A DNA stretch of 64,000 nt from a virus (taxonomy: Duplodnaviria; Caudoviricetes). A model generated the notes under the pieces. The model worked only from the letters and a program-made list of their open reading frames with translations. It was not told where the DNA came from and did no database searches. Made by a program: the position numbers and the translations under genes. The stretch spans positions 42,867 through 106,866 of the IMG/VR virus record IMGVR_UViG_3300033075_001437, one strand, 5' to 3'. This document shows, one piece after another, positions 1 to 53,419 of this stretch; within the stretch, counting starts at the first letter, position 1; every line of letters starts with the position of its first letter.

Positions 1-409
1 TGTTAAAAGCTAAATCATTTTTAACCAATTGTTGATCTGCCTCAACAATATTCTTAACTTGATCGACAGATAATTTTACATTTTTGTTCGCAGCCTCCTC
101 TTGGACAATTTTAGTAGCTTCACCACGTCTAATTTTAAGCTGTCTTTCGGCAGCAGTAACCATGAATTTAACTTCAGAATAAACCGCAGCCCAAAAAGCA
201 TATTGAGCTGGTATACTCTCCATTTGCGTTTCTAATATTTCATAATCAAGATCAAGATCAGGCAACATACTAACATCTATAGATTGGCTTTTGCCGTTTT
301 CATCTTTAGATGGTAATGTAATATTAAATTTAAATAATGTTGAACCAGCTAATTCTGGCGGAATATTTTCGTCAACCCAAGAAGGTCGATTTTTATCACT
401 ATCACTCAT
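1..409 (-). CDS. UvsY-like recombination mediator (runs off the window edge)
   Basis: Manual translation from ATG at 409: MSDSDKNRPSW...PDLDLDYEILETQMESIPAQYAFWAAVYSEVK..., a helical pattern like phage UvsY-type proteins. Its start overlaps the polA-like stop (ATGA). Not in the ORF track. Confidence 0.45.
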   Translation of the reverse strand, partial: MSDSDKNRPSWVDENIPPELAGSTLFKFNITLPSKDENGKSQSIDVSMLPDLDLDYEILETQMESIPAQYAFWAAVYSEVKFMVTAAERQLKIRRGEATKIVQEEAANKNVKLSVDQVKNIVEADQQLVKNDLAFN

Positions 410-1608
410 ATTTTTATTACATCAGTCAGATTTGCAACTATTTCAGCTTTGTTTACTTTATGTACTTCACAAAGCTCCCACTCTCTCCATTTTTCACCAA
501 TACTTACTTTTAACGGGAAAAAAACATCAAATTTATCAAAAGGCTTAGACATAATGCTGACTACATTATTGATAATATATCTAATCAAAGTAATATCTTT
601 AGGAACAGATAATATTATAGAGTCATGGATATCGCCTATAATATATTCCGGAAATAATTTAAAAACTTTATAAATCACATTGTGCATAGCGTGTGCTACA
701 GACCCTTGCATGGATGCATTAAAAATAGATAATTTAGAATCAGATCTATACACTTTGCCAAGTATTGATTTAAAATAGTTATTAGAAGCTATAAAATCAT
801 TAGAATTATTGACCCATTTGTATAAATCACTATAAACATCAATTATTGGCTCATATTCAACAGACATCGAATTAATAGACATCAATAAAAATTTCTTGCA
901 TTCATCTCTCATAATGTTTCCGTCGCTATTACTATTTATAATATCGGCTAAATATTGATATGGATCTGACACTTCAAACGATTTATGCAGATTACTATCA
1001 TTTGATAATATAGATGCTATACGAATATCGGCACATATCCAATCAAAATGCAATAGTAACCCGTTCTCTGTTTTAACATTTGATATTTTAGCTTTATCAG
1101 TAAAACCTTGAATATTAAAACCACAAGATTTAGACCTACCAGTGAATGTTTCTAACGACCAATTAGGATAAACTAAATCATAATTGTACATTAAGCCATT
1201 TTTATTTAAATAATTATAAGCAAATGAAGCATTAGCTTTTAATTTGTTATATTCAGTTAATTCAACATTATCGAGTTTATCAAGAAATAAGTTTATAACT
1301 TTTATGTAATCGTCAAAAGACCCGTATTGTTTATCTAATCTTAGACTAATATCATAAAAATTTCCTTCGGCATCAACAATGTCAAACGCATTTATAAATT
1401 TTATAATATCATTGCATATAATATCTATCTTGCCAAAAAACTTTGATACTAACTCCTTAATAGAATTAAAATCATTTATAACATCAATAAGTTTTCTATT
1501 GTTACCTTTACGATATAAATCTTTAAATATTCTTTTACCATTTACAGATATACCTATAACTGCTACACTTTCATTTTCATATACAACAAAAATAGACGCT
1601 CTTAACAT
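406..1608 (-). CDS. Minimal family A DNA polymerase-like protein (no recognisable exonuclease domains)
   Basis: TFTGRSKS; motif A HFDWICADIRIASILSND; motif B RDECKKFLLMSINS; NASMQGSVAH; motif C IHDSIIL; only 400 aa. Confidence 0.8.
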   Translation of the reverse strand: MLRASIFVVYENESVAVIGISVNGKRIFKDLYRKGNNRKLIDVINDFNSIKELVSKFFGKIDIICNDIIKFINAFDIVDAEGNFYDISLRLDKQYGSFDDYIKVINLFLDKLDNVELTEYNKLKANASFAYNYLNKNGLMYNYDLVYPNWSLETFTGRSKSCGFNIQGFTDKAKISNVKTENGLLLHFDWICADIRIASILSNDSNLHKSFEVSDPYQYLADIINSNSDGNIMRDECKKFLLMSINSMSVEYEPIIDVYSDLYKWVNNSNDFIASNNYFKSILGKVYRSDSKLSIFNASMQGSVAHAMHNVIYKVFKLFPEYIIGDIHDSIILSVPKDITLIRYIINNVVSIMSKPFDKFDVFFPLKVSIGEKWREWELCEVHKVNKAEIVANLTDVIKI

Positions 1609-4221: not shown

Positions 4222-4984
4222 TATTGTGAACCCAAACTAAATTGTTGTGCCACTTCAATGCATTTATTCTATATTCATACTTATAATAAGTATCGACCCA
4301 CATGGCTATTATCATTCTTGGTTGATACTCATGCCGTAACGCTAATGATGCACAAAAGAAACCAGAGCCGACAGAATAAAATTTATCAGCTAACCTCATC
4401 AACATTATAACTTCACGTCTAGTATATTTTGATAAATCAACAGTTCCATTAGGAGCTTTACTATGACTTAACCACAATATCCTATGCGTATTTTTATAAT
4501 TATTTATAATAGATTCTATGTGTTCACTTTTAGTCCAACTTTGCAATGAGTTATAAACAGATTCTATAGCTATCGTAGGAGCATCGTTAAAATCTCTATA
4601 TACATCTAATTCATTTTTAGATGGTATAAATATAGGGCGCTGATCAAAATCGTTTAAACCTAATTCTCTACCAACATATAATGGTGTATCTATTAGCGAA
4701 TGATCAGCATATTTGTCGTTATATTCAACAAACTTTATATTTTGTGTTATTTGATGGTAAACATCATATCCAAGTTGCGTAGCTTTTGTAGATCCATCAT
4801 TTAAATTGTCTATAATTACAATCTTGTTTATAAATTCTATATTTTGTAATGCATCAGCATACTGCTTTCTAATAGCTACGTCAACTTTAATTCCATAATG
4901 TGAACTTATAGATTTTATTAATGGCAAATTAAATAATATATCGCCAAATGAATGCGCTGATTCTACCAATATTTTTTTAGGCAT
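4193..4984 (-). CDS. GT9-like glycosyltransferase
   Basis: SFGDILFNLPLIKSI, VDLSKYTRREVIMLMRLADKFYSVGSG. Confidence 0.55.
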   Translation of the reverse strand: MPKKILVESAHSFGDILFNLPLIKSISSHYGIKVDVAIRKQYADALQNIEFINKIVIIDNLNDGSTKATQLGYDVYHQITQNIKFVEYNDKYADHSLIDTPLYVGRELGLNDFDQRPIFIPSKNELDVYRDFNDAPTIAIESVYNSLQSWTKSEHIESIINNYKNTHRILWLSHSKAPNGTVDLSKYTRREVIMLMRLADKFYSVGSGFFCASLALRHEYQPRMIIAMWVDTYYKYEYRINALKWHNNLVWVHNNDELQKTFS

Positions 4985-5675
4985 TTTTATATTGGTTCAC
5001 TAAAGTATGATATAAGTTCCATTCATGTTCGTTTATCGATTTGTTCCACAAATTTTCACCATTTCTCCACAGATAACAAGCTAAATATTCTCTAACCCAC
5101 ACAAATTTAGCTTGACCTTTATAGTAACATCTGGCCCACCATTCAGCATCTCCAAGTGCTTTAAAATCTTTATTAAAATATCCGTATTTTGTATGTAATT
5201 GGCTCTTCCATAATGGAAAATGGCCGACACCAGACTTATCTAAATCACCACAATAATGTCCTGGGCTGCCTGTTCTGTCTGTTTCTTTCAATTCAGACCA
5301 CTTTTGATTTTCTAAAGCAGTGACTAACCAGCTAGGATATGCAAAGTCACTATTATTCAGCTCTATAGTGGATATTAATTTCTCATAACAATTATTAGAA
5401 ACAATATCATCGGTGTTCGCATTTGTCAGATATTTTGAATTCGATTCTTTAATAGCTATATTCCAAGCTTCATAAACCGACACACGATTGTCTAATTTTA
5501 TATATTTAACATTATATCTCTTCGGTATGATATCATCGTCAACGTCTGGGCTGTCAGCATTTACACATATTATATCCATATCACCTATAATTGACGATTG
5601 AAATAGATTGTGTAATCTATTATCTAACCATCTGCCAGAATTATATAACGAAATGATTGCTGTTAACGATTTCAT
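4977..5675 (-). CDS. GT2 family glycosyltransferase
   Basis: AIISLYN, VYEAWNIAIKES..KYLTNANTDD, GDAEWWAR. Confidence 0.8.
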   Translation of the reverse strand: MKSLTAIISLYNSGRWLDNRLHNLFQSSIIGDMDIICVNADSPDVDDDIIPKRYNVKYIKLDNRVSVYEAWNIAIKESNSKYLTNANTDDIVSNNCYEKLISTIELNNSDFAYPSWLVTALENQKWSELKETDRTGSPGHYCGDLDKSGVGHFPLWKSQLHTKYGYFNKDFKALGDAEWWARCYYKGQAKFVWVREYLACYLWRNGENLWNKSINEHEWNLYHTLVNQYKNA

Positions 5676-6588
5676 CTAGATACCATTTAATTGTTTGTCT
5701 TAAACCATCTCTCAAATTTGTCTTAGCTCTGAAACCAAAATTGCTAAAAGACTTTGATACATCTAAGCATCGTTTTGGTTGACCGTCTGGTTTTGCACTA
5801 TCATATAACACAGTCGTATTATAATCAATTTCTTCTAAAATTATTTCAAGCAAGTTTTTAATAGATATTTCATTTCCAGACCCTAAGTTTACAGGTTCTG
5901 AAGAATTATAATTACATAAAGCTAAATATAACCCTTCGGCAGCATCTTTAGCGTATAAAAATTCACGTGTCGCTGATCCTGTTCCCCAACATTCGACAGC
6001 TTCATTCATCTGTTTCGCTTTAATGCACTTTTTAATCAAAGCTGGAATGACATGTGAAGTGTTTAAATCAAAATTATCATGCTTACCATACAGGTTAACT
6101 GGCAATATAAATATCGCATTAATATTATATTGTTTTCTATACGCTAACGTTCCAAAATATGAGTTTAATTTCGCAACCCCATAACTGGCATTAGATTCTT
6201 CTGGAAAACCATAATGCATTAAGTATTCTTCCTTGAATGGCGTTGGGCAAGAATGTGCGTATGAACACACTGTGCCAAGCATGAGTAATTTTTTCAATCC
6301 TGTTTTAACAGCAGCGTCTAATACGCAAGTCGATATTCTAGTTGTAGCTGACCATAAATCTGCTGGATTTGTTTTATTTAAACCTATTCCACCACATTGT
6401 GCAGCTAAATTTATGACAGCATCTATGTTATTGTTTTGTATCCATTTTACTAATTCTTTTGTATTTTGGGCATCAACGCCTGTGCGTCTGCTGCCAACTA
6501 CATATTCGATATTATTTTCTTTAAAATATTCCGATATATTTGTGCCTAAGAAACCAGTGCCGCCTAAAATGCCTATTTTATTGTACAT
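5641..6588 (-). CDS. fcl: GDP-L-fucose synthase
   Basis: GGTGFLG, GGIGLN..NPAD, LGTVCSY, YGVAK, PVNLYG..DNFD..TSHVIPALIKK, WGTGSATREFLY, KPDGQPKR. Confidence 0.9.
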   Translation of the reverse strand: MYNKIGILGGTGFLGTNISEYFKENNIEYVVGSRRTGVDAQNTKELVKWIQNNNIDAVINLAAQCGGIGLNKTNPADLWSATTRISTCVLDAAVKTGLKKLLMLGTVCSYAHSCPTPFKEEYLMHYGFPEESNASYGVAKLNSYFGTLAYRKQYNINAIFILPVNLYGKHDNFDLNTSHVIPALIKKCIKAKQMNEAVECWGTGSATREFLYAKDAAEGLYLALCNYNSSEPVNLGSGNEISIKNLLEIILEEIDYNTTVLYDSAKPDGQPKRCLDVSKSFSNFGFRAKTNLRDGLRQTIKWYLDEIVNSNHFVI

Positions 6589-25998: not shown

Positions 25999-27594
25999 TT
26001 ACCTTCTCTTTGGAACTCTTATAATTACTTCATTTCTTAATAAACTAAAAGAATTTCTCTTTTCATCATATTTAACCATCATTCTAACACAATTTCCAAC
26101 AGCTAGAGCTGTGCTTATCTTTAAATTAGAATTCATTTCTTTTTCCCATATAAAGACAGTAGCCGATTCAACACCATCAAAAACATTAAGCCTCATATAT
26201 GAAGTTTCAGATTTAGTTTTAGCAGATGTTATCTCTGTTATAATGACCTCAATATCAGCTGCTTTCTCATGTTCACATATTTCTATAGCACTTCTAATAG
26301 ATAGACTATTGTGTTGATAAACATCCATAGGTGAATGAATATAGTAACCTAAAAACTCTTTCTCAAAATTTAATAATTCTTCTAAAGTATAATCTTCTTC
26401 CTCCTCAAAAACCCGCATTAGTTTATCAAAACTTTCATCTGGTTCAGGTTTAAAATTCGCTAATTTGTTTGGTATCTTATTCCTTTTAGGATAAATTGAT
26501 TTATATTCTGCTATTAATTCTTTAGATTTCTGCGATATTTTATCATCTGTCCAGCCATCAAGCAACAAAAGCTTTTTCTTTACTTCTTTAGCATGTTCAT
26601 AAGAAGTATATTTATATTGATAATAATTCCAAAGAGCCTTTGAATGGCCATGTTTCGGGATATGCTTAAAAGCACCTAGCTTTATAAATCTTTCTAGAAC
26701 CTTTTTATCCTTTTTATCATCAGCGACAAATTCATCTAAAGTTTTATAATCTCCCTTACCAGCAAATTTTTGTGCAGCTACCTCACCTATGCCTTTAACA
26801 CCAATTAACCCCTGGTTAATAACACTGCCTGTAACAGTATATTTATTTGTAAGATTATTGATATTAACAATTCCTAAATCTAGCTTATCATCGTTTTTAT
26901 AACGGCCCAATTTTGTTATATCTGTTGGAACCCACCCCTCATTGCGTGCTGTTTGAATATATCTTTCTAATTTATCTGGATGGCATGAACTCATAACAGC
27001 CGCCCAATACTCTGGTGCAAAATGAGCCTTTAACCATAATGTTCTATACGCAACTAAACAATATGAAACAGAATGTGAAGCGTTAAAAGCATATCTAGCA
27101 AATCCTGACATCATATCCCACCATCTTAAAGCTTCACTTTCTCCAATGGTTTTAGTAGCACCTTCAATCCACTTACTTTTAACAGCTTTGAGTTGTTCTC
27201 CCCATTTCTTAGCAACAGCTTTCCTTGCATTTTGCGCCTCCGTAGAAGAAAACCCTCCAAACGATTGCCACATAGCAGCAAGTTGCTCTTGATAAACAAG
27301 ATAACCATATGTCTTGTTTAATATTTTAAGCATTCTATCATTCAATTTAGTCTTCCATATCTGATTCTTATCATCTCTATTAGCTATAATTTCAGGTATA
27401 AAATCGATAGGACCAGGATGCCCACAAGCATTCAATATCATTAAATCGTAAAAATTATTAACACCATGCTTTAGAATAGAATTATGGACAACCAACCCGT
27501 CTATTACAAAATTACCTTCTGATAAACCATTTGCAAAATTATGTATATCATATGTCTTTGCTTTGTGATGCTTTTTTATGCTTTTGATCTTCAT
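25999..27594 (-). CDS. dnaE: DNA polymerase III alpha piece 5: split-intein C-half (38 aa) plus fingers/HhH/OB region
   Basis: MKIKSIKK...TYDI...NFVIDGLVVHN then S; HPGP, TYGYLVYQEQ, GFARYAFNASHSVSY, WLKAHF, GVKGIG, FEKEFLGYYIHSP, OB-like end. Confidence 0.93.
   Translation of the reverse strand: MKIKSIKKHHKAKTYDIHNFANGLSEGNFVIDGLVVHNSILKHGVNNFYDLMILNACGHPGPIDFIPEIIANRDDKNQIWKTKLNDRMLKILNKTYGYLVYQEQLAAMWQSFGGFSSTEAQNARKAVAKKWGEQLKAVKSKWIEGATKTIGESEALRWWDMMSGFARYAFNASHSVSYCLVAYRTLWLKAHFAPEYWAAVMSSCHPDKLERYIQTARNEGWVPTDITKLGRYKNDDKLDLGIVNINNLTNKYTVTGSVINQGLIGVKGIGEVAAQKFAGKGDYKTLDEFVADDKKDKKVLERFIKLGAFKHIPKHGHSKALWNYYQYKYTSYEHAKEVKKKLLLLDGWTDDKISQKSKELIAEYKSIYPKRNKIPNKLANFKPEPDESFDKLMRVFEEEEDYTLEELLNFEKEFLGYYIHSPMDVYQHNSLSIRSAIEICEHEKAADIEVIITEITSAKTKSETSYMRLNVFDGVESATVFIWEKEMNSNLKISTALAVGNCVRMMVKYDEKRNSFSLLRNEVIIRVPKRR
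27481..27594 (-). mobile_element. Split intein C-half (pair B)
   Basis: Basic N-terminus, block F TYDI, block G VHN, followed by Ser +1 at 27478-27480. Confidence 0.9.
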
Positions 27595-42002: not shown

Positions 42003-43154
42003 CTAGAACTTCTTCAAAACATCTTGAACATCAACTTCTTGTCCATTGTATAATATCTTATCGCCATGATTAAGTAAAAGTATCTCCCCATTCTTTAATT
42101 TGACAGCATACTTTTTAACAATTGGACCAAACGATATACCTCTATTTTCTTTTATCAATCTGCAAGCACTGTATATATATTCTAATGTCTTCAAACCCAA
42201 TATATCGAGCTTGCAATAGCCAAGCTTGCTTAAGTGTGTGTTGCGCCCTTCTGGCCACATTGTTGACCATGGATTTTTATTGCTACTTCTGGTTAAAGGA
42301 ACATTGCCGAACAGTGGTTTATTAGCTATAACTATAGCCCCAGCATGAACACCAGCGTTCCTAACCTTGCCGATCATTTTAATAGCATATTCAAATAAAT
42401 CTGGATGATTATCCTTGAATGCTTGCAATTGCTGATACTCAAATAAAGCCCTTCCTATCGTTATATTGTCATATTCATCAGATCCACATCTAGGGCATTT
42501 TAATTCAGCATGTACAAATTTGCATTCTTTCTCTTCTTCACTATCAACTTCTTTATACTTCCCTTTGCAAGTTGACTGCCCAAACTCTCTTAAATCATCA
42601 ACATCTTCAGGTAAAGTTGTTGTTAACGCATGAATTTCAGATTGATGTACCTTACCAATCGCTCTAGCAACATCCAATAATGCTGATTTGAATTTATATG
42701 TCTGCCAAGTTCCGACATTGCAAACATTGCCGTACTCATCATTAATATCAATATTAAATCTTGTAGCCGCATATTTTTTAATATCATCACGTGCTTCTGG
42801 TAAACAATCTATATCTATGTCAGGCATGTCCATATCTTTAGTAAAATCAGATGGTAAGTTGCCATATTGATCTAAAAATTTATGAACCTGCGTATATGAT
42901 GCATTATTCAACAATGGTTCTGTTCTTGTAGCTATTGGGTCTATATCAACCATACCAAGAAGCCACGGCAGAACCAACATACTTGGATTACTAGAAAACT
43001 TCCTGTTTTCTATATATAAATTAATCCAATATGTTTCATATCCTTGTTTTTCTATTTCTGAGAATTCGAATTTAAGTCTATCTATATAAACTTGATCTTT
43101 ATTTTTACTATTTAAATTATTTAAAGCTATTTCTTTTAATTCTTCCCAAATCAT
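42003..43154 (-). CDS. dnaE: DNA polymerase III alpha piece 3: catalytic palm/thumb
   Basis: MPDIDID, KSALLDVARA, RNAGVHAGAIVI, KLDILGLKTL (all three catalytic aspartates). Confidence 0.93.
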   Translation of the reverse strand: MIWEELKEIALNNLNSKNKDQVYIDRLKFEFSEIEKQGYETYWINLYIENRKFSSNPSMLVLPWLLGMVDIDPIATRTEPLLNNASYTQVHKFLDQYGNLPSDFTKDMDMPDIDIDCLPEARDDIKKYAATRFNIDINDEYGNVCNVGTWQTYKFKSALLDVARAIGKVHQSEIHALTTTLPEDVDDLREFGQSTCKGKYKEVDSEEEKECKFVHAELKCPRCGSDEYDNITIGRALFEYQQLQAFKDNHPDLFEYAIKMIGKVRNAGVHAGAIVIANKPLFGNVPLTRSSNKNPWSTMWPEGRNTHLSKLGYCKLDILGLKTLEYIYSACRLIKENRGISFGPIVKKYAVKLKNGEILLLNHGDKILYNGQEVDVQDVLKKF

Positions 43155-43564
43155 TTGCCGCCTGCACCTGGATGTATAGCGTTCATATGGTTAGTCAGCC
43201 CAAATTGTTTTTTAAACTTTTTATTACATATTGGGCAAGTAATGTCTTTAGTTGATTCTTCTATTAGCGACTGTGCCGGTTCTTGATCCAATACTGGCGC
43301 AGTTTGAATTTGCGGCACTTGCGGCGTAATTTTATCTTGTTTTACCGGTTTACTTTGATGATTTATATAATTTTCTTTCAATTTCCAAGGCTGCATAGCG
43401 TATGTAAAGCCATCTTTCTCATATGTATCAGCTTGATAAACAAGAGCTTTTTTAGATTTGGCAATATCTGTTGCGACATCATTCTTCAAAACTGTAGCTA
43501 AAACCTTAGCAGGTGGGTGTACGACAATATACGCTACTTTATTCATTACAAGTACCACTGTCAA
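43151..43564 (-). CDS. Protein with C-terminal C2H2 zinc finger
   Basis: CPICNKKFKKQFGLTNHMNAIH. Confidence 0.65.
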   Translation of the reverse strand: MTVVLVMNKVAYIVVHPPAKVLATVLKNDVATDIAKSKKALVYQADTYEKDGFTYAMQPWKLKENYINHQSKPVKQDKITPQVPQIQTAPVLDQEPAQSLIEESTKDITCPICNKKFKKQFGLTNHMNAIHPGAGGK

Positions 43565-43973
43565 AAGTGTCTTTGCCTAGTATGACTTTATCGCAAATAC
43601 TTTCTAAGAACGTTTGTTTATATTGGTTAATATAAACATGATCAAACTTCATAAGTAATAAACGAATATTCCGTAATAACAACTTATTCTTATTAGATTC
43701 ATACTTCCAAGTATTACCATCTTTAATAAAAAAATTTATTACATCAGCGTTGCAATATAAATACAAAGTATTACAATAAACATTATTATAATTATATGAG
43801 GTCAAAGCAGATAGAATCGATTGCAATTTTACAAATTCAGCAGTTTTATTATATAGCTGATAAGCATAATATCTATGATAATTGCAATATACAGATTTAA
43901 TAGCTACAGTTGATACAGTGTTATCTACCTTTTCATAACAATATAATTTACAATTTATTGCCATGGACGTCAC
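43539..43973 (-). CDS. Degenerate RNase HI-like fold
   Basis: NKTAEFVKL..IL.AL, LYLYCN, GNTWKY...LL..IRLLLMKFDHV echo the RNase HI pattern without the catalytic aspartates. Confidence 0.3.
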   Translation of the reverse strand: MTSMAINCKLYCYEKVDNTVSTVAIKSVYCNYHRYYAYQLYNKTAEFVKLQSILSALTSYNYNNVYCNTLYLYCNADVINFFIKDGNTWKYESNKNKLLLRNIRLLLMKFDHVYINQYKQTFLESICDKVILGKDTFDSGTCNE

Positions 43974-44370
43974 ATATTGTAGGATATTCTGATTTTGTAG
44001 CTGCCGCTAATGCGTTTAATAATTTAGATATTATTCTTAATAAATTATATTTCGCCTGTATCTTATCTATTTTCCTTAATTTAATTATAGCTATCAATAA
44101 TTCGTCATTTAAATTCATGATTTCTTCGGTAAGACCTTTCGCCGCATTAATAGATGCTACATGTTTCGACACATGATTTGCAACTGATTCGATAATTGCA
44201 TATGATAAGCCTATTAATTCTCTCGTCGGATCATTATTAATAATCAATGAATCTATAATATCTATAGATTTAATAAGATATGCGGCCAATTCCGAAGTTG
44301 GGCCATTATATATTAGCAAGTATATTCTAATTGAATGTTTAAATTCTGAATTTGCATCTATTTTATTCAT
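43948..44370 (-). CDS. Hypothetical helical protein
   Basis: 140-aa ORF whose start overlaps the dnaE piece 2 stop. Confidence 0.55.
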   Translation of the reverse strand: MNKIDANSEFKHSIRIYLLIYNGPTSELAAYLIKSIDIIDSLIINNDPTRELIGLSYAIIESVANHVSKHVASINAAKGLTEEIMNLNDELLIAIIKLRKIDKIQAKYNLLRIISKLLNALAAATKSEYPTICDVHGNKL

Positions 44371-44690
44371 TATTTTTCCGGCATTGTCACTTTTAAAAGG
44401 TATCCGCCACGGCTGCTTGACAAGAATCTGTCAAAACTCAAATCCCATTTCATTGGGTCATAATTTGAAATTCCTAATAAATAACATACTAAACTTCCGC
44501 CAGCCGAATTAGAACTGAACACTCCATTTAATTGATATGTGTTAGTGGCGCTAACTTGTAAATCATATACTTTACCGGTGTATTTCTTCTTTGTTATCTT
44601 GTTTATTCTTATTCTCTTTATAGTATTTTTTGTAACCAATTTCTGCAATTCTTTTATGTTTTTGATCTGTGAAGGTAATAGTTGATTCAT
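44370..44690 (-). CDS. dnaE: DNA polymerase III alpha piece 2: split-intein C-half plus 45-aa extein
   Basis: YTGKVYDLQV...NGVFSSN, then SAGGSLVCYLLGISNYDPMKWDLSFDRFL (equivalent to DnaE SAAGSLVAYxLGITxxDPLxxxLLFERFL). Confidence 0.92.
   Translation of the reverse strand: MNQLLPSQIKNIKELQKLVTKNTIKRIRINKITKKKYTGKVYDLQVSATNTYQLNGVFSSNSAGGSLVCYLLGISNYDPMKWDLSFDRFLSSSRGGYLLKVTMPEK
44508..44690 (-). mobile_element. Split intein C-half (pair A)
   Basis: Block F VYDL; terminal Ser-Asn (Asn at 44508-44510); Ser +1. Confidence 0.88.
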
Positions 44691-45055
44691 TGAAAATAAC
44701 CCTAATTTGCCGCCACATGTGACTTCCGCCTGTTCCTCTTAAAATACCTTCGGAAAGCAATCTCTCCGTTGTATATAATACATAATTATCAGCAACGCCA
44801 GTTTCTATGATATATCTTTCAGCGGCTGCCTGTTTTTCGCCAACTTTGTTTTGGTAAAATCCTTTTATTTCTATTATCGATTTAACATTTTTATCATCTA
44901 TGACACAGAAATCTGGATGATAAAAATGTTTATCATATGCTATACTAAAATCGCACCTTCTGATGGTTTTATAATTGTTTCTAACGTGCCAAATATATAT
45001 GTTGAATATTTCCGCACTTATTGCAATTATATGTTATTTTGGTTTTTTTCGACAT
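44572..45055 (-). pseudogene. Broken PD-(D/E)XK homing-endonuclease remnant between the intein halves
   Basis: ATG 45055 gives MSKKTKITYNCNKCG...AR* (24 aa). A second frame, open 45033-44572, reads FYHPDFCVIDDKNVKSIIEIKG with no standard start upstream of the motif. Confidence 0.6.
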
Positions 45056-46643
45056 TAGCGATTAAATCCGAGATACCACCGATGATTTCATCAGTATCTT
45101 TGATTTCATATGCTTTCAGTAAACATACAATATTATCTCTTATGACATATAGCTTATGGTCAGAAGTTAATTCCAAAACGCATCCGTCAACTTCAATAAC
45201 AAACAACTCTTCAGATACATCATAAATGAATTTATTTTCAACTACTTGTTTATCACCGAATCCGTCAATTATCTCATCGCCTATAGATATGTCAGATATT
45301 TTTTGGCAACTGTTAACGGACACATTAACTAAAGCGTCTGGTGTAGTGCAGCCACGGGGGGCAAATGGGAAGCCCCTATTTTTGCCATAATCTATTAAAT
45401 CTTTAGTTATTAAAAAATAACTAGCAAAACCTTTTTCAATAAATCTGCTTAATTCTAATTTAGCCTGATCTAAATAAGTTACCTCTTTGCCATCAACAAC
45501 AAATTTCCTATCACACTTATCTAAACCAAGCTCCTTCAATCTATTCTTAACAATTGTTATAAGCTTCTTATCAGCATCTTCAATACTCGGTATCTTAGGC
45601 GATAAATCGAATTTAACATTGTCGCACTTGTCAGCTATTTCAATAGAGTTATCACATGCCTCATGAAACCTTCTATCATCTATACCATCAGAATATGTAT
45701 TATTCTTGAATCTTGTCCATAATTCAGCACGTGTTTTAAAATATTGTTCATCGCTATTAACATGAAACAAATCTGGCGAATCAACAGTTGTTTCTTGATC
45801 TATTGCCATCATGATTTTTTGGATCATTGAATCTTCTCTTTTCATATAATGACAATCATTAGTTATAACTGGTTTAATTTTAAATTTATCAGCTATCATA
45901 TTTAATATTTTAAAAACTCTGTCATCGCCATCAACCCCAGGCATTTGAAGTTCAATATAATAATCATCGCCGAATATTTGTTTATATGATTTTATAATAT
46001 TCACAGCGGAATTAAGACATTCACTGTCTGTGCGTTCCTTTAAAATATTGCCTTCTCTGTCCTTTATTTGCTTAGTTCTTAACTCGTGTGATACTGGGCC
46101 ATTTAAACAACCAGATAAAACTATTAATCCTTCTTTATATTTAAACAATTTTTCAGTCCAAGACCTGTTATATTTTGCTCTACCCATTCCAAATAAACCA
46201 TCTTTATAAGCTTCTGTAGTTAACTTTATGAGGTTTTCAACTCCTTGTCTGTTTTTACATAAGACAGTAAGATGTCTATTTCTAGTTATTTTAAAATAAT
46301 CTTCAATATTTTGTTTTTTCCATTCTTCAGATCTCCATTTTATCCCTTTAGATTCTAACTCTTGTCTTATCGGCTCATGGTCATTCAGATAAATTTCGCT
46401 ACCAGCGATATATTTAAGACCGCTTTTCTTGCACTCAAAAAAACCATCAGGCACTGATGCCATGTGGCCATGTTCAGTTAGAGCCAATGCACGGTAGCCT
46501 CTTTTCTTGCTTTCAGAGGCATATTGCTGGACATAAGCAACACCGTCTAACATTGAAGCAATACTGTGATTGTGTAAATGTATTATCTCTGAATCACCAA
46601 CATAATCCTCGCAAGTATAAATCTTATTCATGATAACATTCAA
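45027..46643 (-). CDS. dnaE: DNA polymerase III alpha piece 1: PHP domain plus split-intein N-half
   Basis: HLHNHS..SMLDG, ALTEHG, GSEIY, HLTVL, LSGCLNG, TNDCHY, GFASYFLI, APRG then CTTPD...LTSDH. Confidence 0.93.
   Translation of the reverse strand: MNVIMNKIYTCEDYVGDSEIIHLHNHSIASMLDGVAYVQQYASESKKRGYRALALTEHGHMASVPDGFFECKKSGLKYIAGSEIYLNDHEPIRQELESKGIKWRSEEWKKQNIEDYFKITRNRHLTVLCKNRQGVENLIKLTTEAYKDGLFGMGRAKYNRSWTEKLFKYKEGLIVLSGCLNGPVSHELRTKQIKDREGNILKERTDSECLNSAVNIIKSYKQIFGDDYYIELQMPGVDGDDRVFKILNMIADKFKIKPVITNDCHYMKREDSMIQKIMMAIDQETTVDSPDLFHVNSDEQYFKTRAELWTRFKNNTYSDGIDDRRFHEACDNSIEIADKCDNVKFDLSPKIPSIEDADKKLITIVKNRLKELGLDKCDRKFVVDGKEVTYLDQAKLELSRFIEKGFASYFLITKDLIDYGKNRGFPFAPRGCTTPDALVNVSVNSCQKISDISIGDEIIDGFGDKQVVENKFIYDVSEELFVIEVDGCVLELTSDHKLYVIRDNIVCLLKAYEIKDTDEIIGGISDLIANVEKNQNNI
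45030..45350 (-). mobile_element. Split intein N-half (pair A), 107 aa
   Basis: Cys1 at 45348-45350 directly after RG; block B TSDH; acidic. Confidence 0.88.
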
Positions 46644-47355
46644 ATCATTAGGATCATTAGGTAGACTAGGAAATCAAATTTTCCAATACGCTATGATCAA
46701 AAATTTAGCTACAACAAATAAATATGAATACGGAATACCAAAAAATTGTGATCTAAGGAATTGTTTTAAAATAGATTGTAAAGAAAGCGATAATATTCAT
46801 ACAGATTATAAATATGAAGAAGAATTCAAAAATTTCTCGACATACGACAAAAACATATTCAATATCAAAGACAATACTGACATTAGCGGATACTTTCAAT
46901 CATATAAATATATAGAAAGTGATTTTAAATTAGAATTTAAACAAGATTATTTTTTTCAATATAACAAAGATTCCGTTGGTGTTCACATTAGAAGAACTGA
47001 TTATGTCGATAATAAGTTTAATAAAGAACAACCAATAGAATATTATAATAAAGCAATGGATTTATTCGGTAATAATTATAATTTTTATATAATATCAGAT
47101 GATATAAACTGGTGCAAACAAAACTTTAAAGGCGACAATATTTTATTTTCAAATAATATATCAAGCTATGAAGATTTATACTGTTACTCCAAATGCGACA
47201 ATCAAATAATTTCAGCTAGCTCATTTAGTTGGTGGGGAGCATGGTTTAATGCTAAAGCAGATAAAACAATAATATATCCATATTATTGGCTACACGACAA
47301 CTTCATGAATATGGTTAAAGACTTAATCCCACCAACTTGGCTACCAATTAAATAA
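46630..47355 (+). CDS. GT11 alpha-1,2-fucosyltransferase
   Basis: GRLGNQIFQYA, GYFQSYKY, VGVHIRRTDY, ISDDINW, SSFSWWGAW. Confidence 0.85.
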   Translation: MITFKSLGSLGRLGNQIFQYAMIKNLATTNKYEYGIPKNCDLRNCFKIDCKESDNIHTDYKYEEEFKNFSTYDKNIFNIKDNTDISGYFQSYKYIESDFKLEFKQDYFFQYNKDSVGVHIRRTDYVDNKFNKEQPIEYYNKAMDLFGNNYNFYIISDDINWCKQNFKGDNILFSNNISSYEDLYCYSKCDNQIISASSFSWWGAWFNAKADKTIIYPYYWLHDNFMNMVKDLIPPTWLPIK

Positions 47356-47658
47356 CCTACATAGCCAACAAGAGCAATTAACTTTTACCTGTTTTTCTAT
47401 TATCCTGTCAACAATCTTTTCGACTGGTACTTCAACAATCTTAACAACTTCTTTTTCAACCTCAACGATTTTCTCAACTGGCACTTCCACTTTGACAACT
47501 TCATTGACACCGCTATAAACAGCTTTATAAATAGCGTCAAGATCTCTTAATGCTCTTTCAACAAACTTATGCTTTAAAACAAATTTCTTATTGTCATAAG
47601 CTTTTAAATCGTCTGCAAATTTTGCAATTAATTGCAATTGATCAGATTTGGTGCTCAT
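47341..47658 (-). CDS. Protein with VEVPVEK low-complexity repeats
   Basis: KVEVPVEKIVEVEKEVVKIVEVPVEKIV. Confidence 0.6.
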   Translation of the reverse strand: MSTKSDQLQLIAKFADDLKAYDNKKFVLKHKFVERALRDLDAIYKAVYSGVNEVVKVEVPVEKIVEVEKEVVKIVEVPVEKIVDRIIEKQVKVNCSCWLCRLFNW

Positions 47659-47671
47659 AATACCCTCGTTG

Positions 47672-48073
47672 TTATCTTATATTTGCTATTGGCATTTTAA
47701 TAAAATTGCCATGCTCATTTGTATACCATATATCATTAATATTTAAATCTAAAAGCAACTTGCAACATACATCACATGGTTTAGAAATCCCAAAAGAACC
47801 ATCTTTAAATATTCTAACATTGGCCAACTTTATTTTATCAAGTCTTATATCTCTTCTATACAAATTATTAATGGCATGCAGCTCAGCGTGTATGCAATGA
47901 TATCTATGTCCATAAATCTTCGCAATAGGATGTGACTTCCTAGCATTGTTCCAGCCAAAACTTATTATTTTATTCTTATAGATTATAAAACTAAAATGCA
48001 AAGTCCTACAATTAGACAATGAAAAATCATTTACACACTTTTTAAAAATGCGATTCTGAAGCTTACTATTCAT
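47672..48073 (-). CDS. Zn-dependent cytidine-deaminase-fold protein
   Basis: HAE ... SKPCDVC. Confidence 0.75.
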   Translation of the reverse strand: MNSKLQNRIFKKCVNDFSLSNCRTLHFSFIIYKNKIISFGWNNARKSHPIAKIYGHRYHCIHAELHAINNLYRRDIRLDKIKLANVRIFKDGSFGISKPCDVCCKLLLDLNINDIWYTNEHGNFIKMPIANIR

Positions 48074-48087
48074 AATGATATATACAA

Positions 48088-48870
48088 ATGAGCAATAAAA
48101 TCATTCAAATAAACAAGTTTGCAAAATTGCATAACGGCAAAACAATAATATTCTCAAAAACAGATTTTCTAGAAGAAACATTTGAAAAAATACGAAAAAT
48201 AAAAAACAATGTCATACTAATAACAGGAAACAGTGATTACGAAATAACAGATAATACACTAAAAACATCACCAAAGAACATCAAAAAATGGTACGCACAA
48301 AATGCAAATACAAATAAAATAAATTGTATACCAATAGGCATAGAAAACCATGAAAATTGCATATTAGAAGGACATGGCATGGGCCATGCCCATGCCAAAA
48401 TAAAAATAGAACTATTAAACAAAAATTATGAAATACAGCCGACAAAAGAAATATATGCAAACTTCGCGACAAATACAAACCATACAAGAAACAAGATTAT
48501 AAATATATGTAAACATTTAAATAATGTCACTGACCATACATCTAACAGCCACATAGATAACATAAACAGAAATTATGAAATATATATAAACAATATATTA
48601 GACCACAAAATGGTTATAAGTCCAAACGGCAATGGCATAGACTGCCATAGGACATGGGAGACATTATATCTAAATAGAGTGCCAATAGTTGAAGAAAACG
48701 CAGTAACAATCCACTTCAAAAGCTTACCGATAATATATTTAAAAAACTGGGAGCAGTTAAATGATACACAATATATCAATGATCAATATAACAAAGTGAT
48801 AAGAAACACTAAAGAAATGCTAGATATAAATTATTGGACTAATGAAATATTAAGTCAAAATATGAACTAA
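48088..48870 (+). CDS. Exostosin/GT47-like glycosyltransferase
   Basis: KWYAQN, IPIGIEN, MVISPNGNGIDCHRTWETLYLNRVPIV. Confidence 0.6.
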   Translation: MSNKIIQINKFAKLHNGKTIIFSKTDFLEETFEKIRKIKNNVILITGNSDYEITDNTLKTSPKNIKKWYAQNANTNKINCIPIGIENHENCILEGHGMGHAHAKIKIELLNKNYEIQPTKEIYANFATNTNHTRNKIINICKHLNNVTDHTSNSHIDNINRNYEIYINNILDHKMVISPNGNGIDCHRTWETLYLNRVPIVEENAVTIHFKSLPIIYLKNWEQLNDTQYINDQYNKVIRNTKEMLDINYWTNEILSQNMN

Positions 48871-49533
48871 AAAATCTACTAATTTGTCACAATCATCCTC
48901 ATTATACCAATTAGCAATTGTGTCATCAGCACTATGGCATTTCACCCACCTATCACAATATCCATAACCATCTAATTGTTTAATATCATTGTCAGACACC
49001 ATAGTAACACAAGCACTTTTGGTAATATTATTGTTATACCTTTGAAGCATATCTAATGCAGAGGCACAATTATATGGCATATTATAAACGGGAATCTTAA
49101 ATAAATCAAAATTGTTATATTTTGACATAATTAACCGATTACCAGATGCAGTTAATTCTAAATCTATTAAATAATCAGTAAACGGTATATAATTAATACC
49201 ACATTTATATATATCGCATGTTTCTTCAGCATCTATAAAAGCTAATGAAACATTATATTTTAATTCTTTGAATTTCAACTTTTGATACAATTTTATAAGA
49301 TTAATAACGCTCGCAGAATTGTCTAAACAATTCTCATAATTGTTAAACACAACATCATAGTGCGCACTAATTGTTATAGATATATCATTGCCAGCTGACA
49401 ACATTGAATATATATTCACATATTGCGTGTTCTTTATATTATATGGTATATTAAATGAATTTATAACCTTGTCGCTGATAAATTCCCTCTTATCAGCGGC
49501 ATTATTCAATTTACAATATTCATTAATCAGCAT
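48850..49533 (-). CDS. M28-family metallopeptidase-like protein
   Basis: ISAHYD, DNSASV, FIDAEE, CHSADD. Confidence 0.7.
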   Translation of the reverse strand: MLINEYCKLNNAADKREFISDKVINSFNIPYNIKNTQYVNIYSMLSAGNDISITISAHYDVVFNNYENCLDNSASVINLIKLYQKLKFKELKYNVSLAFIDAEETCDIYKCGINYIPFTDYLIDLELTASGNRLIMSKYNNFDLFKIPVYNMPYNCASALDMLQRYNNNITKSACVTMVSDNDIKQLDGYGYCDRWVKCHSADDTIANWYNEDDCDKLVDFLVHILT

Positions 49534-49764
49534 AACAAACTTGATCTAAACGCGGACCTGTTCCAACCATGTTACTGGTATAGATGTATCATCCTCGATC
49601 ATCTTTATAAAATCTAACACTTTTGCTGGCAAATTGTCATAATTGTTACAACCAAAACATTCCCAATCAATATAATTAGCAAAATTAAATGCTAGTTTTG
49701 TAACCCCATTTATAATACAAGCTTCTTTCATCTGACGTTTACTATATGTGAAAACTCTACGCAA
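49523..49764 (-). pseudogene. Displaced original 3' end of purZ (1-nt frameshift)
   Basis: LRRVFTYSKRQ...NFANYIDW...PVT then, after a 1-nt shift, MVGTGPRLDQVCYAD*; 51/79 identical to the purZ C-terminus by manual alignment. Confidence 0.85.
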
Positions 49765-50047
49765 TATGCTTAAACGGCTATGGGACGAACAATCTGGCAT
49801 ATGTCCAATAACTGGTTGGAGTATGGAAAAAAGAAAAACAGGTTCTGGTTTAACAGCTAGAACAGTCACCGTCGATAGAGTCGACCAAACCATTGGGTAT
49901 ATCGAAAATAACATACGATTAGTATGCTTCGCTGCAAATAATGCAAGATATGTTTGGAGTGATTATGATCTTGTATTATTTTGTAAGGCTGTTATTAAAA
50001 CTAACGGAAACACACATGATTGTTGCGAGGACCAGTCCCAACAATAG
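49748..50047 (+). mobile_element. His-Me/HNH-like homing endonuclease domain (probably truncated; ATG at 49766)
   Basis: LWDEQSGICPITG...TVDRVDQTIGYIENNIRLVCFAANNAR. Confidence 0.7.
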
Positions 50048-51152
50048 TGACTGGAACACTAGTTATATCTTCTAACATACTAATAAAATCAAGCACTTTT
50101 CGTGGTAATTTATCCCATTCATTTGTTTTGTAACATGACCAGTCAATATAATTAGCAAAATTTAACACTATTTTAGTAGCTCCATTAATAGCTGCAGCTT
50201 CAATTATTTGTTGCTTAGAAAAAGTAAAGACTCTACGTAATCGTTTAGTAACTGTTGTCAACTCGCCTTTCATAACATCTTCTGGCGCGCCAGCATTTTT
50301 TGCTATATCAGACCATGATGTTTCTTCATGGTCTGAATAGCAACCGCCAGAATAACCTGTAATTTCGTCATTTTCTGTAATATTGCCTACACGTATTGGT
50401 GCTGGCCTTATAACAAGATATACATCCCCGACATATGCTGGAGGGATACCCATATCAGCGGCGTTTTGTAGTGAAGTCGTACTACGACTCGTACAAAACG
50501 GATAGTGTGACCCATGATTAATACAAAGACTAAACCCTTGAGATCCTTCATGTAAAATAGTATATGTGTTATCCATGATTGACATTAATAACCTAGGCAT
50601 TGATAATTGGTTATTTTCGATATCAAAAGCTTTTGCCAACTCATCTAAATTGCATAAATTTGGTACGATGTCCCTAGCCAATTGTAAACCGGCTTTACGC
50701 ATTATTTTATCAGACATAAAAGCTCCACACCCCTGCATAGTGCTAGCTATATGCTTAGTACCGATATCCAGTTGTGACTCAATATCTTTATGACGCTGCA
50801 GGATTATACCAGCTCTTGGATGAACAAAAGATTTTTTAACATTACATTCTTTTAATTCTTCAAGCAATCTTTCAACAAAAAATGACGCTGTCGGGCCAAT
50901 TACCACAAAAGGATTATATTCGCCATCTCTCCAAGCATTTAAAACCGCTGGTGTTGGCAATACTTTGCCAATAAATGATCTATCTGATAATCCCTCACTA
51001 TCAATACTTGTATGTCCAGCATTAGCTTGATTAGTTGTTGAAACAATCTCTGGTCGATAACGATCAGCCAGGGCTGTTGAAATAAGTCCTTTACCACATG
51101 AACCCCATTGCCCATCAACAACAACATTGAACTTACCGCGTTGCATTGTCAA
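50001..51152 (-). CDS. purZ: PurZ-type 2-amino-deoxyadenylosuccinate synthase
   Basis: DGQWGSCGKG (Ser for PurA Asp13), NAGHT, EGSQGFSL, YPFCTSR, PIRVGN, SGGCYSD, TTVTKRLRRVFTFS, LNFANY (for PurA TKLD), VGTGP. Confidence 0.8.
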   Translation of the reverse strand: MTMQRGKFNVVVDGQWGSCGKGLISTALADRYRPEIVSTTNQANAGHTSIDSEGLSDRSFIGKVLPTPAVLNAWRDGEYNPFVVIGPTASFFVERLLEELKECNVKKSFVHPRAGIILQRHKDIESQLDIGTKHIASTMQGCGAFMSDKIMRKAGLQLARDIVPNLCNLDELAKAFDIENNQLSMPRLLMSIMDNTYTILHEGSQGFSLCINHGSHYPFCTSRSTTSLQNAADMGIPPAYVGDVYLVIRPAPIRVGNITENDEITGYSGGCYSDHEETSWSDIAKNAGAPEDVMKGELTTVTKRLRRVFTFSKQQIIEAAAINGATKIVLNFANYIDWSCYKTNEWDKLPRKVLDFISMLEDITSVPVTIVGTGPRNNHVCFR

Positions 51153-51165
51153 TCTCTCTTTCTTA

Positions 51166-51456
51166 TTAAGTCAAATCGTCAAAAAGCATTCTTAAATTAG
51201 CGTCTGAAATATCATCCGGTATTATATTAGACACAAGTATTTCTTCGACTGAACCGTCGCATTTATAAATTGTGAATAAATTCCTAGATGATAATTCTTC
51301 TTTAAATTCCCTAACTATTCTAACAGCCCTAAGTTCTTCAAGCTTTTCATTAATGGTTGATGATAACAAATTTTCCTGATTAGCAAGCCACTTATCGCTC
51401 TTAACCAACAAATTAGGAAATTCTTTCATCGAATTCATTAGTGATATAAAAGCCAT
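51166..51456 (-). CDS. Hypothetical protein
   Basis: 96-aa ORF directly upstream of purZ. Confidence 0.55.
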   Translation of the reverse strand: MAFISLMNSMKEFPNLLVKSDKWLANQENLLSSTINEKLEELRAVRIVREFKEELSSRNLFTIYKCDGSVEEILVSNIIPDDISDANLRMLFDDLT

Positions 51457-51461
51457 GGTGT

Positions 51462-52091
51462 TTATTTTTCTGAAAGTAAGTTAAACTCATTTATTATTGT
51501 CTTAGCTTGATGTAAATTAACAGCATATCTATCAGCTTTTGTCTCAATAATTGATTTAACATCATTAATATTACCAGAAACTTTAATTTTAAATGTTCCA
51601 GCGTTCGAATTAAAAAAATCATTATACTTATTATTTTTAATTTTATTATCGATACAATTTCTAATAAAATTAGGTGTATAAACACCAGAAAATAAACTTC
51701 TCATAGAAGAAAAATCATTCGTAAGAACAACATATCTAATTTCATATAATTTATCAATCTTATTAATAATAAATTCTGACATATTTATAAGATCAATATT
51801 TGTAGTAGCATTATTGATAGCTATTTCATAACCGTCACTATCCATACCATCAACAGGAACACCTCTAAATTTATTTAAGCAATGATTATTACCATTTGGC
51901 CAATCAATCTGTGTTATGATCTTGTATTTGCCTTGTTGTTTGCCACGTAATATTATAGCTTGGTTTATAAGATTAGGATGTACAACCAAAGCTGGTATAT
52001 TATACTTAACAGCTAAAGCAGAAGCATCTTTTAATTCATTAACCTGAGAAATATCTATTTCAAGCTTACTAACAGGCGAACCGTTTAACAT
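51462..52091 (-). CDS. DeoC-like TIM-barrel protein (divergent)
   Basis: AVKYNIPALVVHP..I..A...KIITQIDWPNG, IKVSGNI, ADRYA; FIRN at the position of DeoC FVKT. Confidence 0.5.
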   Translation of the reverse strand: MLNGSPVSKLEIDISQVNELKDASALAVKYNIPALVVHPNLINQAIILRGKQQGKYKIITQIDWPNGNNHCLNKFRGVPVDGMDSDGYEIAINNATTNIDLINMSEFIINKIDKLYEIRYVVLTNDFSSMRSLFSGVYTPNFIRNCIDNKIKNNKYNDFFNSNAGTFKIKVSGNINDVKSIIETKADRYAVNLHQAKTIINEFNLLSEK

Positions 52092-52492
52092 TTAAAACCT
52101 TTCTTAAAATTAATTATAAATTTGTAAACAGCATCAAGATTGTCGAATTTACGAACACAATCTAACTGATAAAAAGTCTTAAATTCGATATTTTCGTCTG
52201 TCAAAAAAACAATTTCTGGCGAACCACGTAAAATACGTGACGCCAACGCAGCACCAAGTTCCACATGCGCACCAAGTTTAGCAGGAGCGACTAACAACAA
52301 CAAGTCGCAATCTATAGCACCAAGTAATTCATTTAACGCAACATTTTTAATCTCGTCAATATTAGTATCATCTTTTGTAAAATGAAAACTAGTCCAATCA
52401 TACGATATCTCAATACCAAAACTTTTTAATTTATCATATATCTTTCTAACATTGTCAGCATTGCTAAGAGTAGAAGCGACATAAACTTTCAT
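52085..52492 (-). CDS. Nucleoside 2-deoxyribosyltransferase / dNMP N-glycosidase family
   Basis: MKVYVAS, YDWT, ELLGAIDCDLLL, GAHVELGAA. Confidence 0.7.
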   Translation of the reverse strand: MKVYVASTLSNADNVRKIYDKLKSFGIEISYDWTSFHFTKDDTNIDEIKNVALNELLGAIDCDLLLLVAPAKLGAHVELGAALASRILRGSPEIVFLTDENIEFKTFYQLDCVRKFDNLDAVYKFIINFKKGFKC

Positions 52493-52495
52493 GTT

Positions 52496-53419
52496 TTAAC
52501 CTTTCAATGATGACAATAAATGACTAACAGCTTCATTTTCATTCAAATTATGAAATTTATTTACAAATGGCCATTTATTCCTACTAGAACAAAATACAAA
52601 CTTATTTAACGTGTCATTATCCAAATTTTCGCTAGCATATAAATAATGCGCAGCTTCATTAGCGAACCTTTTCTTTCTGTCATCAGATTTAATATCAGGA
52701 TTTTGACCATAAAAATATAACTTATTATTATCTTCATCAACATTCATATCAACACCAAATATATAGACCTTATCATAATTCATCCAAACAGCAAATTGCA
52801 TTGACGCATAAACTGTAGAATTACCAATATGTAAACCTTTTAACAAATCAAAGCTAAAACCTTTACCACCTATACTCTTAACTTGTAATGAATTCGCTTT
52901 TTGTCTTTTAACCCCAGTGCCATTGATTATAGTACCATTGTAACTTTCCCATAAATCTTGATGTCTTCTAAATTGAGATGGGTCGTAAAAACTCCAATAT
53001 TTAGTAGGCCAAAGTTTATGGTACGGTTTATTTATAGACATAACATCTATTCTATCATCATTTAACAATTCAATATTTTTAACATCTAATACTGATGGTC
53101 CATTAGCAACAATAGCCAACACTTTACCAACACCTATATTTCTAAGTCTTTTTATCTTTTGTATAGATTCAGCTGTAGTTTCTTCATGTATAAATTTAAC
53201 TATACTCTTATTAGATGCTTTTGGTTTGCTTTGTATAAATTTTGGTTTAGATACAGCTATATTAGATTGTTTTATAACCGGTGTATTGTTTTGTATTTTT
53301 ATTGCTACATTTTGTTTAATAGGATATTGTTGAGTTTTAACTTTTGTTATTTTGTTCCTATTTAATTGTTCTGGAAAATTTATGGCTGTCTTCTTCGGTT
53401 GTAATGGTTTGTATTTCAT
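52496..53419 (-). CDS. DUF115/Maf-like (sialyltransferase-like fold) protein
   Basis: IVANGPSV, MSIN, YWSFYD, STVYASMQFAVWMNYDKVYIFGVD. Confidence 0.6.
   Translation of the reverse strand: MKYKPLQPKKTAINFPEQLNRNKITKVKTQQYPIKQNVAIKIQNNTPVIKQSNIAVSKPKFIQSKPKASNKSIVKFIHEETTAESIQKIKRLRNIGVGKVLAIVANGPSVLDVKNIELLNDDRIDVMSINKPYHKLWPTKYWSFYDPSQFRRHQDLWESYNGTIINGTGVKRQKANSLQVKSIGGKGFSFDLLKGLHIGNSTVYASMQFAVWMNYDKVYIFGVDMNVDEDNNKLYFYGQNPDIKSDDRKKRFANEAAHYLYASENLDNDTLNKFVFCSSRNKWPFVNKFHNLNENEAVSHLLSSLKG

Follow-up and report, generated by a model that had tools for sequence, protein, structure and literature searches.

The stretch of viral DNA analysed here (the window) spans 64,000 nucleotides, bases 42867-106866 of the 106,866-bp IMG/VR viral contig IMGVR_UViG_3300033075_001437, and carries on its minus strand a gene, purZ, for a PurZ-type synthetase; in small phages, PurZ serves the replacement of adenine by 2-aminoadenine (Z) in DNA. 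A preliminary description made from the sequence had placed the open reading frame (ORF) at 50001-51152, and there it is indeed found, intact, with a full-length open frame and all catalytic motifs, being listed at 383 aa with a TTG start at 51152. The sequence 5′ of the gene is GAGAGATTGACAATG, with a GAGAGA ribosome-binding site. Because TTG 51152 lies too near this site and the homologues start with MQxGKF, the true start is most likely ATG 51146, which would give a gene at 50001-51146 and a protein of 381 aa. purZ is the last gene of a tightly packed same-strand run, preceded by genes for proteins of 307, 135, 209 and 96 aa; synteny of this run was seen in about 18 loci. Scans for promoters and terminators around this operon gave nothing above chance. 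The G+C content is 28-37% within the window and about 31% overall, the genome thus being roughly 69% A+T, and the contig completeness of about 30% (CheckV) implies a genome of roughly 350 kb.

The product of purZ matches Pfam PF00709 (Adenylsucc_synt) at an E-value of 1.4e-31 and PHROG 1211, annotated as '2-aminooxy adenylosuccinate synthetase', at 1.4e-51, and its best solved structure by sequence is S-2L PurZ (7odx, 1.9e-36), followed by Pyrococcus PurA and phiVC8 PurZ. The motifs GQWGSCGKG, PIRVGN, SGGCYSD, TTVTKRLRRVFTFS and LNFANY, named earlier for this ORF, are all present. The residues were aligned with those of S-2L, phiVC8 and SH-Ab 15497 PurZ, Wayne and Ghobes PurZ0 and Salmonella PurA, all taken from annotated records, with PurA residues numbered by the E. 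coli convention. S18 stands at the position of PurA Asp13 and replaces this catalytic residue, as does a Ser in 219 of 219 aligned relatives and in all 32 jumbo-phage homologues. T299, equivalent to phiVC8 T262 and S-2L T273, is invariant, and N331-F332-A333-N334-Y335 corresponds to the adenine-stacking site of phiVC8 (N294-Y298) and S-2L (N305-Y309), where PurA reads TKLDV and PurZ0 reads TMLDQ or SFADQ. Ser for Asp13 and NF for TK had been named earlier as marks of ATP-using PurZ, and the query has both. In previous work, the Ser, Thr and N-F-A-N-Y residues were tied to the use of dGMP and ATP (PMC8342488; bioRxiv 10.1101/2025.10.22.683976), and a metagenomic dZ-association study reported residues that distinguish PurZ from PurA (bioRxiv 10.1101/2025.10.22.683976); P252, Y272, W280 and G288 of the query are the equivalents of the residues flagged by metaGPA as separating the two enzymes. 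Together with S18, T299 and NFANY, these four are invariant among the 32 jumbo-phage homologues. Also present is the loop insertion that follows PIRV and is specific to PurZ; the study of S-2L ties it to ribose discrimination (PMC8342488).

Compared with the PurZ enzymes of phiVC8 (PDB 6FM1/6FKO), S-2L (7ODX) and SH-Ab 15497, the query has the same fold and shares the Ser for Asp13, the Thr that makes room for the 2-amino group, the ATP site N-F-x-(N/Q)-Y, the post-PIRV insertion and the clade. However, it is just 32-38% identical to them and stands on a separate branch, and it has a complete C-terminal region, which resembles that of PurA and carries an additional AGAPxxVMxGE insertion. One residue had been read in the preliminary description as a hint of a different substrate, namely that equivalent to PurA Arg303, which contacts the ribose 2′-OH (PMC8342488). 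The residue is still Arg in the query (R304), as had been stated, while S-2L has Leu and phiVC8 Lys; the hint does not stand, however, since among 222 PurZ-type homologues K-R or K-K is the majority state at this site and the K-L of S-2L is rare. Given this Arg/Lys majority and the Lys of the characterised phiVC8 enzyme, the retained Arg304 reads from the alignment as no sign of an unusual substrate. By sequence and descent, the gene very probably encodes a PurZ-type enzyme.

The descent was examined in trees built from 150 cluster representatives of an exhaustive HMMER search (305 representatives of 50%-identity clusters at E<=1e-30), to which IMG/VR homologues, cellular Ser-type genes, canonical long PurA and archaeal short PurA were added. 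The cellular genes were gathered with a Ser-containing P-loop pattern and thus represent the Ser type only, not an unbiased sample, and the archaeal PurA were fetched separately. A FastTree phylogeny of 208 rows and an IQ-TREE phylogeny of 78 rows (support given as ultrafast bootstrap/SH-aLRT, the Shimodaira-Hasegawa-like approximate likelihood ratio test) agree on the placement of the query with PurZ. A single clade (100/99) holds the PurZ of S-2L, phiVC8 and SH-Ab, the group of Bacillus phage vB_BpsS-140 and the jumbo-phage clades including the query, whereas the PurZ0 of Ghobes and Wayne fall outside the clade (99/95) uniting the remaining Ser-type enzymes, and archaeal short PurA is sister to every Ser-type enzyme (100/99). 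A phylogeny had been suggested earlier as a check on this gene, and its outcome is that the enzyme groups with PurZ (100/99), apart from PurA and PurZ0. The jumbo core clade with the query is supported at 100/83, while its placement relative to the characterised PurZ within the PurZ clade has a support of just 53/37. The cellular Ser-type PurA homologues (for example those of Rhizobium, Streptosporangiaceae and Acidobacteriaceae) are proteins of about 530-560 aa with an N-terminal extension of about 190 aa; they lie on chromosome-size contigs beside a canonical purA and form their own clade outside phage PurZ.

The nearest isolates in GenBank are small phages at no more than 37% identity, and among the 202 phage records matched none exceeds 67 kb except three: MaF61, an uncultured phage of 735 kb with 24% identity, and a contig from a Salmonella genome. 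Over 120 clusters at 53-66% identity come from metagenomes, where their contigs reach 408 kb, and in IMG/VR, where homologues were found by an alignment-based scan (a single-protein scan of viral contigs returned none), the complete genomes of relatives measure 355-408 kb and have terminal repeats. Fifteen jumbo records were compared, of which G000-G009 form the core clade. The lineage is uncultured, given that for one of its core proteins, which is SbcC/gp46-like, no relative from an isolate exceeds about 25% identity. By these genome comparisons, purZ appears as a core gene of an uncultured phage lineage of 355-408 kb with a fractured DnaE. In the literature searched, no paper connects PurZ with jumbo phages. 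A cultured phage from lake water, Flavobacterium phage MaF61 (PQ858689.1, 167.8 kb), has a PurZ-type gene (L201:2983-4326) with DGSFGSSGKG, TTLTKLPRRVASFS and MNFVNY, which lies between scaffold and terminase genes and is annotated just as adenosuccinate synthetase; the paper describing MaF61 does not mention it.

The replicative polymerase of the phage is DnaE (Pol III alpha), as the preliminary description had stated, but it is fractured into several genes rather than being a single one. On the minus strand, its pieces extend over 42003-46643 and comprise the PHP domain together with the beginning of the NTPase domain (45027-46643), a further fragment (44370-44690) and the NTPase domain (42003-43154), and a separate piece at 25999-27594 holds the finger and HhH regions; DnaE is likewise divided among several genes across the core clade. 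The window also carries a minimal family-A polymerase-like ORF of 400 aa (406-1608, minus strand), with D-W-I-C-A-D as motif A and H-D-S as motif C, and ORFs of about 400 aa occur across the clade. A full-length family-A polymerase of the DpoZ type is absent from the core clade, in which just this PolA-like ORF (25-55 bits) and DnaE were found, while a more distant jumbo lineage (G010 and G011, at 38-40% identity) encodes a complete PolA but lacks DnaE. The family-A-like ORF had been overlooked earlier, together with the nucleoside deoxyribosyltransferase (NDT)-fold and aldolase-fold neighbours of purZ and a duplicate of its 3′ end.

The absence of datZ and mazZ noted earlier for the window extends to the whole 106.9-kb contig (about 30% of the genome) and to the complete genomes of relatives; as the contig is incomplete, the absence for the phage of the window is argued from these relatives. 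The HD profile PF01966, found in 3 of the 15 jumbo records and conserved clade-wide in none of its forms, detects DatZ only marginally (S-2L and phiVC8 score 23 bits, and SH-Ab 15497 is missed). A dedicated DatZ profile was therefore built from S-2L and phiVC8, which recovers SH-Ab 15497 DatZ as a positive control at 3e-17 and yields no match in G000-G009 and weak matches just in G010 and G011. DUF550 (PF04447) occurs in 0 of the 15 records, with a profile that finds S-2L MazZ and the SH-Ab DUF550 protein, and MazG (PF03819) and DUF5664 (PF18909) occur in one record each. A search of the rest of the genome for DatZ and DUF550 MazZ had been proposed; run here with controls on relatives, it gave no match to DatZ, MazZ/DUF550 or DUF5664 in five core-clade genomes that are complete or nearly so. 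A PurB-like lyase (Lyase_1) is encoded in just 2 of the 15 records, which presumably leaves the lyase step to the host. The dUTPase profile PF00692 hits 10 of the 15 records, often with two copies, and most complete relatives carry two dUTPase-family genes. The second paralogue (184-191 aa; L195:303-878, L196:369-929 on the minus strand and L197:382-936 on the minus strand) has an insert of about 40 aa that separates motif 1 from motif 2, and its distance from purZ is 13-33 kb; the window's own incomplete contig contains none. As a candidate DutZ it was rejected, having only ordinary dUTPase-level similarity, with all canonical motifs besides the insert, which is not diagnostic.

Hence a huge-phage lineage combining PurZ with DnaE, as proposed in the preliminary description, is supported, and it has no detected DatZ or MazZ and no counterpart in the literature searched. 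The phages of phiVC8, S-2L and SH-Ab 15497 have genomes of 38-67 kb with DpoZ or PrimPol, whereas the present lineage has 350-410 kb, DnaE and neither DatZ, MazZ nor DUF550. To our knowledge, the characterised Z-genome phages are all small (38-67 kb) and employ DpoZ or PrimPol with editors of the DatZ/MazZ type, or else DutZ with DmtZ in the PurZ0 actinophages. The PurZ0/DmtZ actinophages and the jumbo phages have in common a Ser-type synthetase gene by that of an NDT-superfamily enzyme and the absence of DatZ and MazZ; however, the jumbo synthetase is of the ATP-motif PurZ type and not PurZ0, and the jumbo run lacks the NDT-Dut fusion and has a partner with the deoxyribose-5-phosphate aldolase (DERA) fold that the actinophages lack.

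This DERA-fold gene and the NDT-fold gene, both in the conserved run that ends with purZ, are the candidate helpers that had been missed. The 135-aa protein (52085-52492, minus strand) resembles nucleotide N-glycosidases of the NDT superfamily, with an invariant Tyr4 and an invariant nucleophile motif G-x-H-x-E78-x-G-x-A. Its profile matches the CMP N-glycosidases BcmB, BlsM and MilB (8e-7 to 3e-5), as well as nucleoside deoxyribosyltransferases, and the catalytic Glu of the nucleophile motif falls in register, and its AlphaFold (AF2) model, with a predicted local distance difference test score (pLDDT) of 91, returns BcmB, NDT and DNPH1 in Foldseek. It thus shares the fold, the catalytic Glu motif and the N-terminal Tyr with BcmB, MilB, BlsM and DNPH1/Rcl, but is only 12-21% identical to them. 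In a sister group (L187-L190 and L193, on IMG/VR contigs that measure 93-388 kb), the product of the NDT-like gene is extended at its N-terminus by a zinc ribbon, for a total of about 210 aa, and a conserved 269-aa gene follows a divergent PurZ.

The 209-aa protein (51462-52091, minus strand) has no sequence-level match in Pfam (including DeoC, PF01791), the PHROGs or the PDB. Its AF2 model is a TIM barrel (pLDDT 83.7; predicted template modelling score, pTM, 0.83), the best structural matches of which are all deoxyribose-5-phosphate aldolases (Foldseek 1e-8, TM-score 0.73-0.77; Atlas TM-score 0.79), such as DERA/DeoC of Bacillus halodurans (BH1352, 6D33). When the strands are set in register, the Asp of beta1, the acid of beta4 and the Lys of beta7 are kept, the last as K170 in IKVSGN, a K-x-S-G resembling the K-A-S-G-G of DERA and equivalent to E. 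coli K201. However, in this register, which rests on the model strands and a weak hhalign anchor (beta2-beta3), the Schiff-base position on beta6 (E. coli K167) is an invariant Arg144 and the beta5 Lys position is an invariant Arg119, so that the protein, as modelled, has likely lost the Schiff-base Lys. The gene adjoins a PurZ-type gene in 25 of 25 IMG/VR loci, among them a subgroup with a PurZ of just 28% identity to the query that still keeps GGAGSSGKG, TSVTKKVRR and LNFxNF.

The conserved 307-aa protein at the head of the run (52496-53419, minus strand) gives faint MptE/DUF115 and CstII-sialyltransferase-like signals and is a doubtful member of the module. The small conserved ORF between the aldolase-fold gene and purZ (51166-51456, minus strand, 96 aa) is about 30 aa shorter than in ten homologues (about 125 aa) and lacks their C-terminal GWxxDGYD; it was considered as a MazG-like enzyme and set aside, as acidic metal-binding motifs are missing from it and it matches no family.

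Just downstream of purZ, at 49540-49765 on the minus strand, lies a decayed duplicate of its 3′ end, which covers codons ~305-381 (the last ~77) and is 67% identical in DNA to 50015-50241, with a 1-nt deletion that shifts the frame ahead of the VGTGP motif. The duplicate begins exactly at the most conserved motif of the family, TTVTKR|LRRVF. Between the live gene and this copy, on the opposite strand (49748-50047, plus), is a truncated ORF for a homing endonuclease of the endonuclease VII/HNH type, 99 aa long and comprising only the C-terminal half of the family; at locus L005, a full 161-aa homologue (65% identity) stands right after purZ. Judging from its sequence, the region 49540-50047 is probably what remains of a homing or gene-conversion event in which a foreign purZ 3′ end replaced the resident one. 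In Bacillus phage vB_BpsS-140, a homing endonuclease likewise lies directly after purZ. Furthermore, PurZ homologues of 710-1197 aa (P0121, P0122, P0124, P0129, P0133, P0135, P0136, P0143 and others) have intein-size inserts of about 350-420 aa at two recurrent catalytic-motif sites, near query residues 47-59 (after NAGHT) and near 220 (YPxC|TSR), P0129 having both; inserts at such motifs suggest that purZ may be under strong purifying selection. A dCMP-deaminase-like gene (47672-48073) and an M28-peptidase-like gene also lie just downstream of purZ, and none of the genes downstream is syntenic in relatives. Sugar-related genes near the replication genes (46630-49533 and 4977-6588) include a GT11 fucosyltransferase-like and an RXYLT1-like gene, a GT2 gene and one for an NAD-dependent epimerase/dehydratase.

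Based on the fold, residues, phylogeny, synteny and missing canonical helpers described above, we propose how this operon could work, the enzyme activities, the substrates of the neighbouring proteins and Z in the DNA being what we infer. Breakdown of host DNA would supply deoxynucleoside monophosphates including dGMP and dAMP, and the PurZ-type enzyme would convert dGMP, Asp and ATP to dSMP, or N6-succino-2-amino-2′-deoxyadenylate, which host adenylosuccinate lyase (PurB) and kinases could turn into dZTP for the fractured DnaE replisome to incorporate in place of some or all adenine. The purine pool would be edited at the monophosphate level and not via DatZ or MazZ: the NDT-fold N-glycosidase could split dAMP into adenine and deoxyribose 5-phosphate before it is re-phosphorylated, as DmtZ does in PurZ0 actinophages, where this NDT-family dAMP hydrolase/transferase destroys dAMP (PMC12884076, 2026), and the DERA-fold protein could handle the resulting sugar phosphate or another phosphorylated intermediate of the pathway. 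That the gene feeds Z into phage DNA at all seems to us reasonably probable. The fuller proposal, that the 355-410 kb lineage replicates a Z-substituted genome of about 69% A+T via DnaE with monophosphate-level helpers other than DatZ and MazZ, among them a purZ-linked DERA-fold protein with Lys changed to Arg that perhaps performs an undescribed step on deoxyribose 5-phosphate or the succino intermediate, is put forward tentatively.

Several points weigh against this proposal. We know of no work on the use of dZTP by family-C polymerases. Searches of the core clade gave no dATP-specific triphosphatase; the dATP of the host may therefore remain, and the substitution may be partial. The NDT-like protein has no detectable kinship with DmtZ (Ghobes gp53 and the N-terminal domain of Wayne gp53; hhalign probability 1.4%, BLASTP E 0.5-2.4), which would fit an independent recruitment, and its family occurs in about 14 viral loci without purZ, with PF00709 genes in none of the five such records searched. 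This argues that the family as a whole is not dedicated to dAMP and no marker of Z, and the predicted dAMP role accordingly comes from gene context, not from family membership. An aldolase step of the DERA-fold protein is doubtful, as it appears to lack the Schiff-base lysine, and synteny within one lineage is partly inheritance and no independent evidence. The phages have no known relative in culture, and among isolates the closest match to a core gene is about 25% identical.

Some of the same observations could be accommodated by PurZ-type chemistry acting on another substrate or for another purpose, wherein the enzyme would use GMP or another nucleotide, or 2-aminoadenine nucleotides would never become bulk in DNA, or the surplus dGMP of a GC-richer host would feed the 69% A+T genome with low or no stable substitution. 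The G+C content of about 31%, the separate branch of the jumbo clade relative to the three assayed enzymes, the lack of DatZ, MazZ, DUF550, DUF5664 and DpoZ in the core clade and Arg304 at the site that contacts the ribose 2′-OH in PurA could all be cited for it. However, Arg or Lys is the majority state at that site, the dGMP-specific phiVC8 enzyme itself having Lys, the PurZ-specific loop insertion after PIRV is present and every residue linked with the 2-amino group or with ATP is retained, and we regard this explanation as less probable than the proposal above.

Two further explanations are far less probable. An ordinary adenylosuccinate synthetase acting on IMP, GTP and Asp, carried as an auxiliary gene of purine synthesis, would agree with Pfam, which gives the general family name only, and with a C-terminal third closer to archaeal PurA than that of the small-phage PurZ enzymes is; but the Ser at Asp13 in 219 of 219 relatives, the change of the guanine-specifying (T/N)KxD to NFANY and a tree that excludes PurA (100/99) go against it, and on sequence grounds it appears already close to refuted. 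Equally improbable is a decaying passenger spread by homing endonucleases and of no present function, which the truncated endonuclease and 3′ pseudo-duplicate directly downstream, and the frequent intein-size inserts of the homologues, could bring to mind. The gene nevertheless has an open full-length frame with all catalytic motifs and a conserved position in the gene run across a deep lineage, and such selfish elements typically target essential, conserved genes.

In conclusion, the purZ operon of these phages is a new variation on the known Z pathway, with other helper genes and another DNA polymerase, and by its sequence Z-DNA may be in use among giant phages too. The PurZ tree, in which archaeal short PurA is basal and the jumbo clade has a PurA-like C-terminus, bears on the origin of PurZ, and the operon points to new enzymes assayable from synthetic genes, namely an independent glycosidase of the NDT fold and a protein of the DERA fold whose active site is altered. 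If the proposal is true, a conserved PurZ working with a Pol III-type replicase would extend Z-DNA to a major and abundant class of environmental viruses, and would raise the question of how a family-C polymerase treats dZTP versus dATP.

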